DNA from: Eledone cirrhosa | Lineage: Eukaryota | Direction: 5' to 3' | DNA: 64,000 nt | NCBI GenBank assembly: GCA_964016885.1 | Contig: OZ024749.1 | Span: forward strand, 22,258,001-22,322,000 | In this document: positions 329 to 63,967 of the stretch, one piece after another | How the letters are laid out: the number at the start of each line of letters is the position of its first letter | How positions within the stretch are numbered: the stretch's first letter is position 1 | The notes under the pieces: generated by a model | The model's database searches: none | Told to the model about the DNA's origin: nothing | The model's input: only the letters and a program-made list of their open reading frames with translations | Program-made: the position numbers and the translations under genes

Positions 329-796
329 TGGAGGAGGTTATAGTTCACTTGAAGCATTGTGTAATGAGGTATAAACGTTAGAATATGTGTAATAAGGCCA
401 AGACAATGCAGATATGGACATAGAAACATACCTACACCTTCATGCTTTCTCCCACACACATATACAGGCACGCATATAAAATTTAAAAAACACAACAAAA
501 ACATAAACAAACCCCTCTTAAAGGGAGACTACTCTTTACCCACCTAATTTTAATTCTTTGATATTAAAGTTAGAACTCTATACTATTTCCGGTCAGCATG
601 GCTTCATTGGAAATTTAAGACGCTGGTCTGAGACGTTTACTTCCCTCCGAAGAAGAGATATTATCTCGAAAATTAAGGACATTTAAATAAATTCAAGGTG
701 AAAGACGAATTCTCATCAATATCTCTCACTATTGCATTCTTTTTCTATGTCCATATCTGCATTGTCTTGGCCTTATTACACATATTCTAACGTTTA
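329..796 (+). mobile_element. Short PLE pseudo-LTR remnant (family W) with inverted 5' piece, flanked by (TA)n
   Basis: About 370-425 is the reverse complement of about 743-796; same family as 36775-37160; contains a hammerhead motif at 644-678. Confidence 0.7.
644..678 (+). ncRNA. Minimal type-I hammerhead, core mutated (CCGAAGA)
   Basis: cct-CCGAAGA-a-GAGAT att ATCTC-GAAA-atta-agg; the sister copy at 36938-36972 has CTGAAGA. Confidence 0.55.
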
Positions 797-1000
797 TATA
801 TATATATATATATACATACATATATATATATATATTTATATATATATATTTATATACATACCTATATATATATATATTTATATATAATATATATATATAT
901 ACATATATATATATATCTATATATATACATACATATATATATATATTTATATTTATATATATATACATACACATATATACATACATATATATATATATAT

Positions 1001-1183
1001 AACAAAGGAATTGTGGTAAGGAACCAGATGGACCATAACGCACCAGAGGACTCAATACTTAGGGTAGTAGAGTGCGAAATAGAAAAAAGTATGACCCCGA
1101 CGGCAGAGCTCAAGCCGTCCATTTAGTCCAGAAATAGCCGTCGAAAAGGCTTGAGCTCTGCCGTCGGGGTCATACTTTTTCCT
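1001..1183. mobile_element. Fold-back pLTR mini-element in (TA)n
   Basis: About 1085-1118 is inverted to about 1146-1180; same family as 15569-15710, 42733-42925 and 11350-11385. Confidence 0.65.
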
Positions 1184-1712
1184 ATATATATATATATATA
1201 TATATATATATATATATATATATATATATATATATATAAATATACATATATATATATATAAATATACATATATATATATATATACATATATATATATATA
1301 CATATATATATATATATACATACAATGCATATATATATATACATATATGTATATATATATATATATTTATATATATATATATATATAAGAAAGATCGAGT
1401 ATCGAAAAATCGGCGCACGAGTTCACGATAAACAAAATTCGATACATATATGTATATATATATATGCATGTATGTATATATATATATATATGTATATATA
1501 TATATATATATATATATATATACATATATGTATATATATATATGCATGTATGTATATATATATATATATATATATATATATATATGTATATATATATATA
1601 TATGTATATATATGTATATATATACATACATGCATATATATATATACATATATGTATATATATATATATATATATATATATACATACATATATATATACA
1701 TATATATATATA

Positions 1713-2268
1713 TGGTGGCTGCCAACTCGTTTTCGAGTACGGCCACTACTTTATATCCATGTAGGAGAACCCCTACTGATGCGCTGAACGAGTGTGACTT
1801 TTTAGTCCAGCCAGCGACTTGAAAACTTTGGTACAAACACTGCACTTGTGACAATTATTGACACATAGTGCTGGGCCCATGGTACCATGTGACGACAAGT
1901 GCAGAGAGATCTCCAGATACAAAGCAATGCCTGTGCCGTGAAGCTTTTATAGTGAGAAAAGGCACTGCACAAAGCCAGTCCCACTCTCTTAACCAAGATG
2001 ATATTTACCAAAAAGAAGAACAAGTCAACATCATTGGATACCATCAGGGTTGCAGGTGTTATATCAGAGTTTTCCTTCTCCTAGAATTCTGCCTTGACAA
2101 AGGCTAAGGGGTCATCTCTCCCGGTGATTTTGGATGGCCATTGGCTCTTAAGAGCTCCTTTTGCCCTTTGACAGGTTTTGTTTTTAGTCCTGCAGGATGT
2201 CCAAAGTCACCCTCCTCACCAAGAAACCTTGGCGGGGTTGCCAGTTTAGTCGCCAACGACCCGACCAT
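1713..2268 (-). mobile_element. Non-autonomous RTE-derived element (~555 bp)
   Basis: Minus strand has an RTE 5'UTR-like motif ctaggagaaggaaaactctga and a 3' end ctcgaaaacgagttggcagccacca running into microsatellite; four copies in the window plus a stub at 1-14. Confidence 0.65.
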
Positions 2269-2634
2269 ATATATATATACATACATATATATATATATAT
2301 ATATATATACATTTATTTACATTATAATGTACATATATATATATAAGTGTGTGGGGGGGGGGGGGGCGTGTGTATGTATGTATGTACATATTCAATCATA
2401 TCTATATAAACATATGTAAATGTTTATATATTTAAATGTATATATAGATATATTATATTGGGTTGTGTAGGCATTTATGCATGTGCGTATACGCATGTAT
2501 ATTTTCGTGAATTGCGTAGGTGTCTGAATACACGCACTGTTCAACGTTTGTGTATGCATGCTTGTGTATAAATGTCTATAAAGTTTATATTCACGTTATA
2601 TATATATATATATATATATATATATATATATATA

Positions 2635-3200
2635 TGGTGGCTGCCAACTCGTTTTCGAGTACGCCCACTACTTTATACCCATGTAGGAGAACCCCTACTG
2701 ATGCGCTGAACGAGTGTGACTTGTTAGGCTAGCCAGCGACATGAAAACTCTGGTACAAACACTACACTTGTGACAATTATTGACACATAGTGCTGGGCCC
2801 ATGGTACCATGTGACGACAAGTGCAGAGTGATCTCCAGATATAAAGCAATGCCTGTGCCGTGAAGCTTTTATAGTGAGCAAAGGCACTGCACAAAGCCAG
2901 TCTCACTCTCTTAACCAAGATGATATTTACCAAAAAGTAGAACAAGTCAACATCATTGGATACCATCAGGGTTGCAGGTGTTATATCAGAGTTTTCCTTT
3001 TCCTAGAATTCTGCCTTGATAAAGTCTAAGGGGTCATCTCTCCCGGTGATTTTGGATGGCCATTGACTCTTAAGAGCTCCTTTGCCCTTTGACAGGTTTT
3101 GTTTTTAGTCCTGCAGGATGTCCAAAGTCACCCTCCTCACCAAGAAACCTTGGTGGGGTTGCCAGTTTAGTCGCCAACGACCCGACCATGGGACAGGTTG
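2635..3200 (-). mobile_element. Non-autonomous RTE-derived element, copy 2
   Basis: Near-identical to 1713-2268. Confidence 0.65.
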
Positions 3201-3917
3201 TATATATATATATATATACATGCATACACACATACACACACATATGTTTGAATATTTATATATATAGATATAATTGTAGGGTTGCAGGTATATATATATA
3301 TATATACATATATACACACTCACACACACACGCGCGCGTACACACACACACCCACACACACACACACACACCCACACCCACACACACACACACACACACA
3401 CACACACACATATATATCTATATATATATATATATACATACAAGGATGAACAAATCGACATAAAAACATCTCAGTTTTATTCTGTAAAGATCTCAAAGGA
3501 AGATTTGAAAAAAAACAACCCAGAAGACCCTATTCCAGAGTACACATATGAAATAATACTACAGAAACAATATCGATTACCTATTGTAATATATATGCCA
3601 AGGTACAAAAGTAATCAGAACATAAAAAAAATTACTTACATTACCTGTTACACTTGAACTATACCTATACAGCTGTTTCGAATCTCAGAGAAAAACATCA
3701 TCCATTAAATACCCTTATATATATATATATATATATATATATATATTGTTATACTTTGGGAGGGTCATGTTGCCAATAAGAAACACACGCACCAGTTGCT
3801 TTCACTTCAATTTATTATATATTTATAAATTTATAAATCTACAAATCTACAAACTTATAAATTTCTGGTTGGTTGGTTGGTTCCACAACCAGATAGTTGT
3901 TTATATATAGTCATAGC

Positions 3918-62293: not shown

Positions 62294-62920
62294 GTATATG
62301 TATATGTATATATATATATATATAATGTATATATATATATATATATATAATATATATAATGTATATATATATATATATAGATTACATAAGTATCAAAGTT
62401 AAAATCATTTAAATCATTTAATCGCTGACAACTGTTTCTTCCAAACTTAAGCTTGAGGTCCTCGGAGCATTATCAATGTTTGTACATATAATTAACCTCC
62501 TATTCAATTGAAGAATCCTACAGATACATATATATTGATGATGTGGACAACAGTTTCATGTTTCCACACACACACACACACACACACACACACACACACA
62601 CACACACACACACACACACACACACACACACGCACGCACGCACACACACACACACACACACACATGCCCCCCACACCCATACCCCCCCCCCCCACATATA
62701 TTGAAATTAACCGGTGTTGTTCTGCGATGAAGCAGCAGAAATCGGATTAATGACGGTTGTATAGCGATCACTTAATGTGACAGGAAAGTATTCTGGAATC
62801 AGAGCGGACTAATCAGATTCAGTGCGGGACAACGATATGTGAAGAAAGCAAACGATATTGATTAATAAACATTAATAATCATTAATAATAATTAATAAAC
62901 ATTTATACTTATTAATAATA

Positions 62921-63030
62921 ATAATTGTTTCTACTTTTGGCACAAGGCCAGCAATTATCCCAGTGAATTACTGGTACTTTATTTTAACGACCTCATAAGG
63001 ATGAAAGGCAAAGTTAACCTCGGCGGGATA
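62921..63030 (-). mobile_element. SINE 3' fragment
   Basis: Matches the body of the 7187-7368 family; another fragment lies at 28657-28730. Confidence 0.7.
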
Positions 63031-63116
63031 ATCTCTTTCTCCCACTCTCTCACTATCTCTCTGTCTCACCCTCTCTCCTATATATATATATATATATATA
63101 TATATATATATACATA

Positions 63117-63463
63117 TCCAGGGAGTGTAACTTGGAGTTACTGTAGGTTCACCCAGGTGAGCACTCGATCTTTAGGTTCACTTCAGTGTCGCGGTGTAGA
63201 GCTAGACAGAGTGTATTATAGTGAAATAAGATAACAAGGACGATTTGTTACTCCTTCATTACGTTTATTGGTTGGTGACGCGCGTTTCGGCACTGATCAG
63301 CTCAAGGTTCATTCCTTGTTAAGAAGTCTGACGAGCCGCAGATTACAGAGTCGGGTCAGATCGATACAGATCTAACCTTGAGCTGATCAGTCGCGAAACG
63401 CGCGTCACCAACCAATAAACGTAATGAAGGAGTAACAAATCGTCCTTGTTATCTTATTTCACT
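63117..63463 (+). mobile_element. Fold-back pLTR element with long-stem-II hammerhead at 63325-63409
   Basis: 63218-63309 is inverted to 63374-63465; CTGACGA-60 nt-GAA ACGCGCGT C. Confidence 0.75.
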
Positions 63464-63552
63464 ATATATATATATATATATATATATATATATATATATA
63501 TATATATATATATATATATATATATATATATATATATATATATATATATATA

Positions 63553-63671
63553 ATTAGGTATTAAATTAACAATGAAAATAAAAACAGCAAAGTCAAGTTA
63601 ATTTACCTATTTATATGAATAGGTAAAATAACTTGACTGCGTTGTTTTTACTTTCATTGTTAATTTAATAC
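63553..63671. repeat. Imperfect fold-back (~55-bp arms)
   Basis: gtattaaattaacaatgaaa..tttacctatt pairs with aataggtaaa..tttcattgttaatttaatac. Confidence 0.75.
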
Positions 63672-63897
63672 GTTATATCTGACTCTGTATCTAAGGAATT
63701 AACGCAGTGGAACACGGAACTTTTCTATGGATTTCAATCGATTCTTCGCCATCAGATTACATTGAGTTCTATCTACGGTTCTGACCCTACCACCAAGGGT
63801 AGACCACACTGAAAAAAATAAATATATATATTATTTATGTAAAGGAACCTTTGTTCCAAACTACAGAACGAAAAAACAGAAACATTACAACTTAACA

Positions 63898-63967
63898 CCT
63901 GTCTGATGTAAACACGTTAAAGGGTTATTATGCAATAACTTAGATGTCTTGAAATGCGCATAACAGG
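63898..63967 (+). ncRNA. Type-I hammerhead (A9U change)
   Basis: cctgt-CTGATGT-long stem II-GAA ATGCGCAT A-acagg; same stem III as 13409-13479. Confidence 0.65.

Follow-up and report, generated by a model that had tools for sequence, protein, structure and literature searches.

A 64-kb window of the Eledone cirrhosa genome (the whole stretch of DNA analyzed; positions 22,258,001-22,322,000 of contig C9, OZ024749.1, within a 3.0-Gb genome) contained Penelope-like elements (PLEs), tandem insertions without an open reading frame (ORF) and pieces of long interspersed elements (LINEs), set among runs of TA (Table 1). Hammerhead ribozyme motifs were found in the PLEs and in the ORF-less tandems; the LINE pieces carried none. 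The proposed model is that hammerhead-bearing PLEs and their passengers end in (TA)n and are mobilized by PLE proteins, one passenger family having a predicted self-cleaving hammerhead in S-G-C order (site, GAAA, CUGANGA), and its probability is put at about three in four. The predicted split S-G-C hammerhead is the new component of this community, the other components being of known kinds.

A scored descriptor for type I, with a C3-G8 or U3-A8 core and stems I-III and counting scores of at least 14, detected 26 hammerheads in the window, far above the level of dinucleotide-shuffled sequence (mean = 0.3, maximum 2, in 20 block-wise shuffles). With regular-expression and homology rescue, the full-length motifs reached 43, 17 of them added by hand (6022 and 13710 are doubtful). 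Four more were seen directly, outside the rescue expressions (51732+, ~46930+, 36969-, ~650), the roughly 20 additions by homology being degenerate or variant forms, and about nine 3' halves were also present, so the 35-40 motifs of the original prediction were, if anything, too few. The descriptor motifs sorted into 13 families (about 22 including the rescued motifs), compared with the roughly 15 flanking contexts it had proposed. Its mostly palindromic stem III was also recovered, being fully palindromic in 22 of the 26 motifs, and all seven stem III words that it named occurred after GAA or GCA. The U3-A8 core was found in 4/26. GAA followed by a palindrome of at least 8 nt occurred 44 times compared to 3.4 across 30 shuffles, nine of the 44 being one non-ribozyme word of the F1 repeat; short palindromic type-I stem III was above chance both in the window and in a grid sample of the genome. 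Of the two checks suggested, a descriptor and Infernal, only the former detected the motifs: Rfam gave no match in the window at the gathering score and, at weak scores, no hammerhead family among 150 of 282 rows. Its E-value matches were discarded as microRNA noise from TA/CA repeats.

The grid sample comprised 99 ten-kb pieces (990 kb, 0.03% of the genome) at fixed spacing on contigs C1-C15 and C17-C22, contigs C23 onward, including the large C28, lying outside it. It contained 122 motifs compared to 3 in one shuffle, which extrapolates to 369,000 motifs in the genome (bootstrap 260,000-500,000; 327,000 minus one tandem-rich piece). Motif density per 10 kb was 4.1 in the window, 2.0 in the flanking 200 kb and 1.2 in the grid; it tracked TA content (rho 0.65), and (TA)≥6 runs represented 9.0% of the window and on average 5.0% of the grid samples. 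The window is typical of the genome in kind and richer in degree, and is no special place. Together, the 188 motifs from window, flanks and grid formed 47 families. The family with stem III ATAT(A/G)TAT (7660-7760 and 49 copies) was among the commonest type-I families sampled and consisted mostly of very short head-to-head stubs, with no parent element found in the sampled copies.

The inserts had been expected to end in (TA)n, and the enrichment was marked and polar, on the 3' side. Of the 25 window motifs that could be scored, 20 had a (TA)≥6 run no more than 250 nt downstream of the cleavage site, while a local null predicts 7.5 and 10 had such a run upstream. A run started within the same downstream distance in 88 of 120 grid motifs (35 expected from a within-locus null; upstream, 35), and was present there in 27 of 39 motifs of the flanking 200 kb. 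Opposite-strand pairs within one family were divergent in 25 cases and convergent in 3.

The predicted S-G-C hammerhead family

The ORF-less tandem at 33445-34478 failed the type-I descriptor, and its homologues showed the hammerhead letters in another order. Its motifs at 33516 and 34044 (-) are therefore of another type than type I, a point absent from the original prediction. From 5' to 3', the first part consists of P0a, a hairpin (H), II*a, P1a, a kink-turn (k-turn), the 3' strand of stem III and UH; after the predicted cut follow stem I, a 3-nt linker, II*b, GAAA, stem III, the k-turn, P1b, stem I, CUGAUGA (33516-33510) and P0b. A pattern for this layout had 15,140 matches in the genome, and its reversed control none. 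With a pattern free of the core, 13,383 matches were obtained (control 0); among the 100 of these listed, manual reading showed an intact core in 90 and one core change in each of the other ten, and H17 was only A or C. Across the contigs of sequencing run X1, only N7 and H17 varied at 8% or more; runs X4 and X6 gave no coverage, which does not prove absence. All eleven catalytic-core positions were fixed while the adjacent stems covaried across subfamilies.

Covariation was assessed on 36 distinct copies out of 41, leaving out truncated and edge-cut copies and one near-duplicate. The seven helices were paired in 93.3% of 1260 cells, compared to 28-43% in slid controls, and 18 of 35 pairs changed on both sides. 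Such double changes affected 6 of 7 pairs in stem I and 5 of 6 in P1; stem III was 100% paired, with one of five pairs double-changed and two more in L286. The base after CUGANGA and the base before GAA (10.1-11.1) paired in 33/36 copies, with four pair types. The strand before GAA had its partner upstream of P1 (II*), and that of the strand following CUGANGA lay further upstream still (P0), the 8-bp hairpin H lying between the P0 and II* partners. P0 and the hairpin abut and, from this geometry, may stack as one rod that keeps A9 and stem II close. The joint between P1 and stem III possessed a 3-nt bulge and tandem GA pairs, and the GA on the bulged strand, outside the search pattern, was invariant in 36/36 copies; we take this joint to be a k-turn, which may bind an L7Ae-family protein. 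P1 joins the outer ends of stems I and II and may be the equivalent of the outer helix of Eckert 2023 (PMC10085705).

Four nested helices appeared unprompted in the fold of a window copy. The main family had units of ~470-740 bp and inverted short-long pairs (L360, L361), with no linked ORF in 16 copies. A generic S-G-C descriptor gave 10 matches in 1.25 Mb and none in three shuffles, and a second family of the same layout (L081, L185), without blastn similarity to the main one, possessed all six helices, a canonical G10.1-C11.1 pair, a core spacing of 792 bp and a longest Met-initiated ORF of 105 aa. The motif would fold as a monomer, with the two-helix domain of P0 and H extruded between A9 and stem II, and a cut after GGUAU(A/C) would release unit-length RNA, possibly circularized.

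Other readings of the same letters were discarded. A stem II formed with a downstream TGCA segment was dropped, as the upstream partner covaries, and a standard type II/III fold across tandem units was rejected because it requires the same contiguous stem II between blocks C and G, which was paired in only 37% and is absent. A box C/D small nucleolar RNA or selenocysteine insertion sequence (SECIS) reading of the k-turn was set aside by inspection, the would-be guides pairing together. Pattern matches in 101 metagenome stretches (80 listed) and three viral stretches were attributed to chance, as none of the 104 matches read had stem I.

The S-G-C motif is quite probably an active ribozyme. Several points weigh on the other side: the contiguous stem II lacking here is obligatory according to Eckert 2023 (PMC10085705); the 18-pair double-change count was reached in 30/500 shuffles, and, the copies being related, the covariation cells cannot be counted as independent; the fold z-scores of five copies were weak (-0.4 to -2.4 in a pseudoknot-free model); and both window copies had a private mismatch in helix II*. 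Moreover, two young PLE families have spread with altered cores (GCA in 28/30 copies, CAGAAGA in most) and PAc inserts without ribozyme activity in vitro (PMC11167929), so cleavage may be dispensable. The motif could instead be a conserved non-catalytic RNA, for example a binding site for a PLE protein, in which the hammerhead letters were kept by descent. The non-contiguous stem II, the PAc result and the recent amplification of families with non-canonical cores suit this explanation, as does the finding that eight of nine predicted Xenopus retrozymes remained uncleaved (Li et al., bioRxiv 10.64898/2026.07.22.740005), but it is made somewhat unlikely by the eleven fixed core positions beside covarying stems, by an H17 that is never G and a variable N7, as catalysis requires, by the covarying 10.1-11.1 pair and by a layout common to two unrelated sequence families.

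Penelope-like elements and ORF-less retrozymes

All PLE ORFs of the window were broken or truncated, and Pfam profiles on 22 frames detected GIY-YIG in two PLE frames and RVT_1 in one, mostly under the cut-off. Hammerheads were located in the pseudo-long terminal repeats (pLTRs) of elements encoding a reverse transcriptase (RT) and GIY-YIG endonuclease in eight families, as is established for minimal type-I hammerheads of PLE pLTRs. The element at 38712-42610, assigned to the Hydra clade by the motifs of Craig 2021 (PMC8557442), possessed U3-A8 hammerheads with a 2-bp stem I at 39019 and 42354. Copies of this family elsewhere had open frames of 927-979 aa; one of them (L351) encoded a 927-aa ORF with RWK, DKT, CxCX5C and GIY-YIG motifs, flanked by two pLTRs with TA at both ends, and the same motifs were recognizable in the broken window copy. 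The second Hydra-type PLE (47164-49744) carried motif ATATATAT at 49646 and an inverted 3' piece with a motif at 47262-. Both DKSG families had a CX4CxxC linker, which fits the Neptune/Nematis CX2-5CxxC criterion and would allow either clade. Homologue searches with the PLE RTs returned no clade names among the homologues (50 unnamed), and the closest named relatives of one RT were Octopus vulgaris predicted proteins (47-81% identity over short stretches).

The 5' pLTR of the Neptune-like PLE (19536-22722) contained a U3-A8 motif with GCA replacing GAA (22468-22497, -). This pLTR family (also ~46930 +; L150-L179) was young, with 97-98% identity and GCA in 28/30 copies; the motif is either tolerated as a variant or is a dead ribozyme in a family that keeps spreading. 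The ACCGGT U3-A8 stubs, kin to the Neptune-like pLTR, showed no tandem in 14-18 copies. In the CAGAAGA family (6238-6282 -; L180-L209), the core was present in 19/22 copies read by regular expression, with a 5-bp stem III.

Eight families were followed in 25-30 loci each (±1.5 kb), the loci being the best query matches and not a random draw; three of the eight, all of them stub families, proved to be PLE ends. Five families (F1, F2, F7, the 483-bp and the 658-bp family) are ORF-less tandem retrozymes with type-I hammerheads, with units of 460-658 bp and one hammerhead each. The longest Met-initiated ORF was 29-76 aa in the five tandem units measured, F7 being outside that set. F1, F2, F7 and the 483-bp family were arranged in tandem, and across 25-30 loci each no ORF stood at a constant distance; six ORF matches near their units were rejected on inspection as neighbors across TA runs or junctions. 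The F1 array (24967-27892) had internal (TA)n in each unit and both outer ends in (TA)n, and F1 copies were 100% identical across many contigs; no RNA data set was listed as containing the F1 unit. As the (TA)n lies inside the unit, F1 would bring new targets along. This internal (TA)n varied in length within the transcribed monomer. One further retrozyme, with a 310-bp unit and stem III ACGCGT, formed an 11-unit array elsewhere (L049), its family being absent from the window.

The original prediction of ORF-less ribozyme elements stood for the five tandem families. The ATGCGCAT (13471), CAGAAGA (6282) and ACGCGCGT stub families, although seemingly ORF-less in the window, are 5'-truncated PLEs. 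A sense-upstream PLE match was found in 10/30 loci of the 13471 family and in 6/30 of the 6282 family, with a Hydra-type ORF ~0.9-1.2 kb upstream in both, and the ACGCGCGT pLTR was followed by a Hydra-type ORF in 3/30 loci. Extended to every ORF-less piece, this would make each of them either the 5'-truncated end of a PLE or a pLTR duplicated locally in tandem, and would leave no trans-mobilized passengers. Such an origin holds for at least these three stub families and the 23490 and 36061 stubs, and local tandem amplification from pLTRs has been proposed (Li et al., bioRxiv 10.64898/2026.07.22.740005). As a general explanation it is improbable, given that F1, F2, F7 and the 483-bp family lack a fixed-distance ORF (a rare parent could escape loci of ±1.5 kb) and that the tandems occur dispersed on many contigs, are 95-100% identical and show fresh TA junctions as well as two-ended inversions.

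Table 1. Position, strand and description of the features found in the window (positions counted from its first nucleotide).
Position	Strand	Feature	Details
33445-34478	-	ORF-less tandem with S-G-C motif	528-bp unit, ~1.9 units; TA-rich both ends; longest Met-initiated ORF 52 aa
34033-34134	-	Predicted non-circularly permuted (S-G-C) hammerhead, copy 1	Cut predicted between 34088 and 34087
33505-33606	-	Predicted S-G-C hammerhead, copy 2	Cut predicted between 33560 and 33559
24967-27892		Retrozyme F1 (stem III ACTAGT)	Head-to-head inverted array, units 460-480 bp, six motifs
34970-36015		Second F1 insertion, diverged	One full motif 35277-; inverted partial copies
8839-9965		Retrozyme F2 (ACTAATTAGT)	Inverted insertion; three motifs, one core-mutated
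16353-17490	+	Retrozyme F2, tandem	541-bp units, two motifs
11403-12313		Retrozyme F7 (U3-A8 core, ACTACGTAGT)	Inverted 5' piece; 593-bp unit in other copies
38152-38713	-	Retrozyme, 483-bp unit	Motif 38299, stem III ACCGATTCGGT
52157-52981	-	Retrozyme, ~658-bp unit	Motif 52602, ACCATGGT; tandem and inverted copies elsewhere
38712-42610	+	Hydra-clade PLE, pLTR-ORF-pLTR	Broken ORF; RT 39279-40804, GIY-YIG to 41930
36061-36375		Inverted stub of the 38712-42610 pLTR	Motif 36121-36151, -
47164-49744	+	Second Hydra-type PLE, 5'-truncated	CxCX5C linker and GIY-YIG 47399-48460
23490-24170	+	3' end of second Hydra-type PLE (5'-truncated)	Motif 24076
42940-46851	+	PLE of Neptune/Nematis type, with DKSG and a CX4CxxC linker	Broken ORF, inverted 5' piece, motif 46670
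3747-5340	+	5'-truncated copy of the 42940-46851 PLE	GIY-YIG match, inverted 3' piece, degenerate motif 5079
29496-33363	-	Second DKSG-type PLE family	RVT_1 match, pLTRs both ends, degenerate motif 29796
50694-51972	+	Truncated copy of second DKSG-type family	Degenerate motif 51732
19536-22722	-	Neptune-like PLE RT	Broken, cut before endonuclease
36777-38086	-	5'-truncated PLE, clade unplaced	C-terminal GIY-YIG (37370-37792), motif 36969
330-794		Further pLTR copy of the 36777-38086 PLE
13385-13495	-	Stub with motif ATGCGCAT (13471)	Hydra-type PLE 3' end, from other copies
6217-6480	-	Stub with CAGAAGA (U4A) core	Hydra-type PLE 3' end, from other copies
17490-17760	-	ACGCGCGT family pLTR	Hydra-type ORF after it elsewhere; inverted second copy 63123-63462
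15571-15790	-	U3-A8 motif, long stem III	1002-1182 and 42735-42926 hold 3' halves of this family, head-to-head
8223-8411	+	ACCGGT U3-A8 stub	Also 34575-34793 + and 50080-50230 -
12633, 5610, 8503, 63903, 15419		Solo motifs	Outside the eight pLTR-assigned families
78-63552	n/a	(TA)≥6 runs	195 runs; common target of elements
53156-56386	-	LINE with AP endonuclease and RT, frameshifted	Profile matches
1714-2266, 2636-3187, 18828-19236, 60563-60787, 59379-59680		LINE-like 3' ends, C-terminal zinc finger	No hammerheads; joined to (TA)n or (ATGT)n
60931-62290	-	Restriction-like-endonuclease LINE, 3' part	Ends in (ATGT)n; partly duplicated at 432 bp
7187-7441, 14659-15075, 59675-59858, 62915-63029		Dispersed repeat family like short interspersed elements (SINE-like)
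28007-28452		91-bp minisatellite	4.8 copies

Among the elements without hammerheads, the LINE-like 3' ends with a C-terminal zinc finger are presumably RTE-like, and we take the LINE at 60931-62290 to be R4/Dong-like. A CCCH-like zinc finger frame precedes the LINE at 53156-56386, beside the assembly gap.

Integration at TA runs

F1, F2, F7 and the 483-bp family each possessed two fixed 3' ends, at 249/306, 70/190, 82/191 and 80/243 nt past the cleavage site, respectively, and the same two-end pattern was found in PLE pLTR families (114/153, 25/115, 42/136 and 50/157). Across the four ORF-less families, a TA/TC run adjoined 128 of the 140 3' ends and 31 of the 42 5' ends (null ~1%, for TA). 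Their closed inverted insertions combined a short and a long end in 37 of 46 cases, three being apparently concordant and six having an off-site end; against 0.5, the maximum under independent choice, this pairing has P = 2e-5. A one-sided PLE 'tail' was described by Craig 2021 (PMC8557442), and in vitro PAc uses two internal RT start sites with both strands extended (PMC11167929). By analogy, the two-end signature on the passengers fits a PLE tail combined with the two-start initiation of PAc.

As PLE and ORF-less families have common (TA)n targets and a common integration signature, a shared niche and mobilization route is the best reading and is supported, as had been proposed, for several PLE families and for true ORF-less tandems alike. 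The PLE proteins likely cut (TA)n and reverse-transcribe their own and passenger RNAs from two fixed start points. The endonuclease would cut both (TA)n strands, each 3'-OH priming cDNA, which would yield head-to-head insertions as with PAc in vitro (PMC11167929), and type-I motifs with a palindromic stem III would cleave as dimers. Counting against the model, no helper was matched to a passenger.

Of 16 long F2 ends, 11 carried (CT)5-57 (L241-L269; window 8726-8839), where the template has two CT units. The opposite flank was without a CT run in all 8 of these 11 in which it was visible, and (GA)4 followed only 41 of 4122 TA-run ends. In the window itself, the F2 copy lies in a compound TA/GA tract. 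The (CT)n likely arose from RT slippage at initiation, with later expansion as the alternative, and its growth by reiterative synthesis of a telomerase-related RT is possible.

Growth of repeats at the junction also bears on whether (TA)n could be a tail made by the elements, or reflect co-accumulation in TA-rich DNA, and not be a target. The long F2 CT runs compared to two template units, the (TA)n inside the F1 unit and the dependence of motif density on TA content would agree with this, but 5' ends adjoin TA/TC runs too (31/42), the within-locus null already allows for TA richness, and Hydra, Neptune and Naiad are reported to target TA (PMC8557442), which makes it distinctly improbable as a replacement for targeting. 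Tail growth and TA targeting are compatible with each other. That errors in assembling TA-rich DNA created the inverted and tandem structures is hardly credible: such structures do trouble assemblies (Craig 2021, PMC8557442) and the window has a gap at 56.6 kb, but the arms differ by 1-5% and end at distinct family-specific positions, and the same variants, with one opposite-strand joint, recur in the contigs of run X1, which is of an independent format and has the organism code of X5, though it may represent the source sample.

At one grid locus (L040:51-5407), a 5.3-kb palindrome with arms ~96.5% alike included at least five element families and several TA runs; it is centered on a head-to-head stub and could come from read-through retrotransposition or DNA fold-back. 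Movement of multi-family chains as a single unit was not adopted, as this locus stood alone among 77 inverted structures in 99 grid loci.

Taken jointly, the following reading is reasonably probable from the sequences: at least two unrelated retrozyme families mobilized by PLEs would have an active hammerhead in S-G-C order whose block C is interrupted by an extruded domain of two helices, with a k-turn as well in the main family; their copies would exceed 15,000, the genome having some 300,000-400,000 hammerheads in all, and would be inserted by a PLE RT able to add repeats at initiation.

Comparison with known systems

PLE hammerheads, the U3-A8 core, retrozymes, their proposed link to PLEs and TA targeting are already published. 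About 150,000 variants across databases, and variant hammerheads with extra stems, were reportedly described by Lunse in 2017 and Weinberg in 2015. A literature search, which covered few subscription papers, found no genomic S-G-C hammerhead and no cephalopod hammerhead survey, and the word 'ribozyme' was absent from the main text of the O. vulgaris repeat paper.

The minimal type-I PLE hammerheads of Cervera & de la Pena 2014 (PMC4209133) and those studied here share the type-I form, a short or palindromic stem III, the U3-A8 core, a position in pLTRs, a predominance of solo truncated copies and opposite-strand pairs. Many long stem II insertions were found here, as well as family-fixed GCA and CAGAAGA cores not described in the accessible part of that paper. 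The 370,000 motifs estimated here compare with ~9,000 in Xenopus and 4,000 in coelacanth, the descriptors being different. Other published per-genome figures, which are not like for like, are >6,000 in a coral, ~5,000 in a mussel and up to 120,000 in the axolotl, and the extrapolated count is above the largest of these, again with different descriptors.

As in Hydra, Neptune and Nematis clades (Craig 2021, PMC8557442), the PLEs possessed a C-terminal GIY-YIG, RWK/DKT/CxCX5C motifs (Hydra) or a CX2-5CxxC linker, pLTR hammerheads, (TA)n insertion, inverted 5'-truncated copies and a one-sided tail. The differences are tails of ~40-165 nt here compared to 30-40 nt, a Hydra element of ~3.9 kb compared to 'generally <3 kb', and several Hydra families that are abundant in the genome.

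Like metazoan non-LTR retrozymes (PMC7229834; bioRxiv 10.64898/2026.07.22.740005), the passengers are tandems without an ORF that measure a few hundred bp, carry a single hammerhead in each unit and are found beside PLEs; this hammerhead is of type I in F1, F2, F7, the 483-bp and the 658-bp family, and not in the S-G-C family. In these two sources PLE mobilization of retrozymes was proposed from co-occurrence and phylogeny, whereas in this genome the passengers themselves bear the signature of PLE integration, namely TA targets and two 3' ends, one of each in inversions. Seen on ORF-less tandems, this two-ended tail signature supports the proposed PLE-retrozyme partnership directly from the genome, and with intact Hydra ORFs present alongside young passengers, the partnership can be tested in vitro.

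Type SGC was found only in metatranscriptomes although RefSeq v85 was searched, and block C was assumed to be uninterruptible, with an obligatory contiguous stem II (Eckert 2023, PMC10085705). The present motif has the same order of site, GAAA and CUGANGA, all core nucleotides including UH, covarying stems I and III, a linker of ~3 nt between stems I and II and an outer helix; a direct stem II between blocks C and G is absent. It differs from type SGC in occurring in an animal genome, in retrozyme-like tandems with at least 15,140 matches, in having the stem II partner upstream of the cleavage block, tied to A9 through P0 and the hairpin, and in the k-turn between P1 and stem III of the main family. 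As CUGANGA and stem II are split, standard descriptors and Rfam miss this form, which suggests that other genomes may hide such hammerheads, and the thousands of natural variants offer a ready covariation and mutation series. If the motif cleaves, the assumption that CUGANGA and stem II are inseparable would be broken, and non-circularly permuted hammerheads would move from uncultured RNA replicons into a chromosome, at high copy number.

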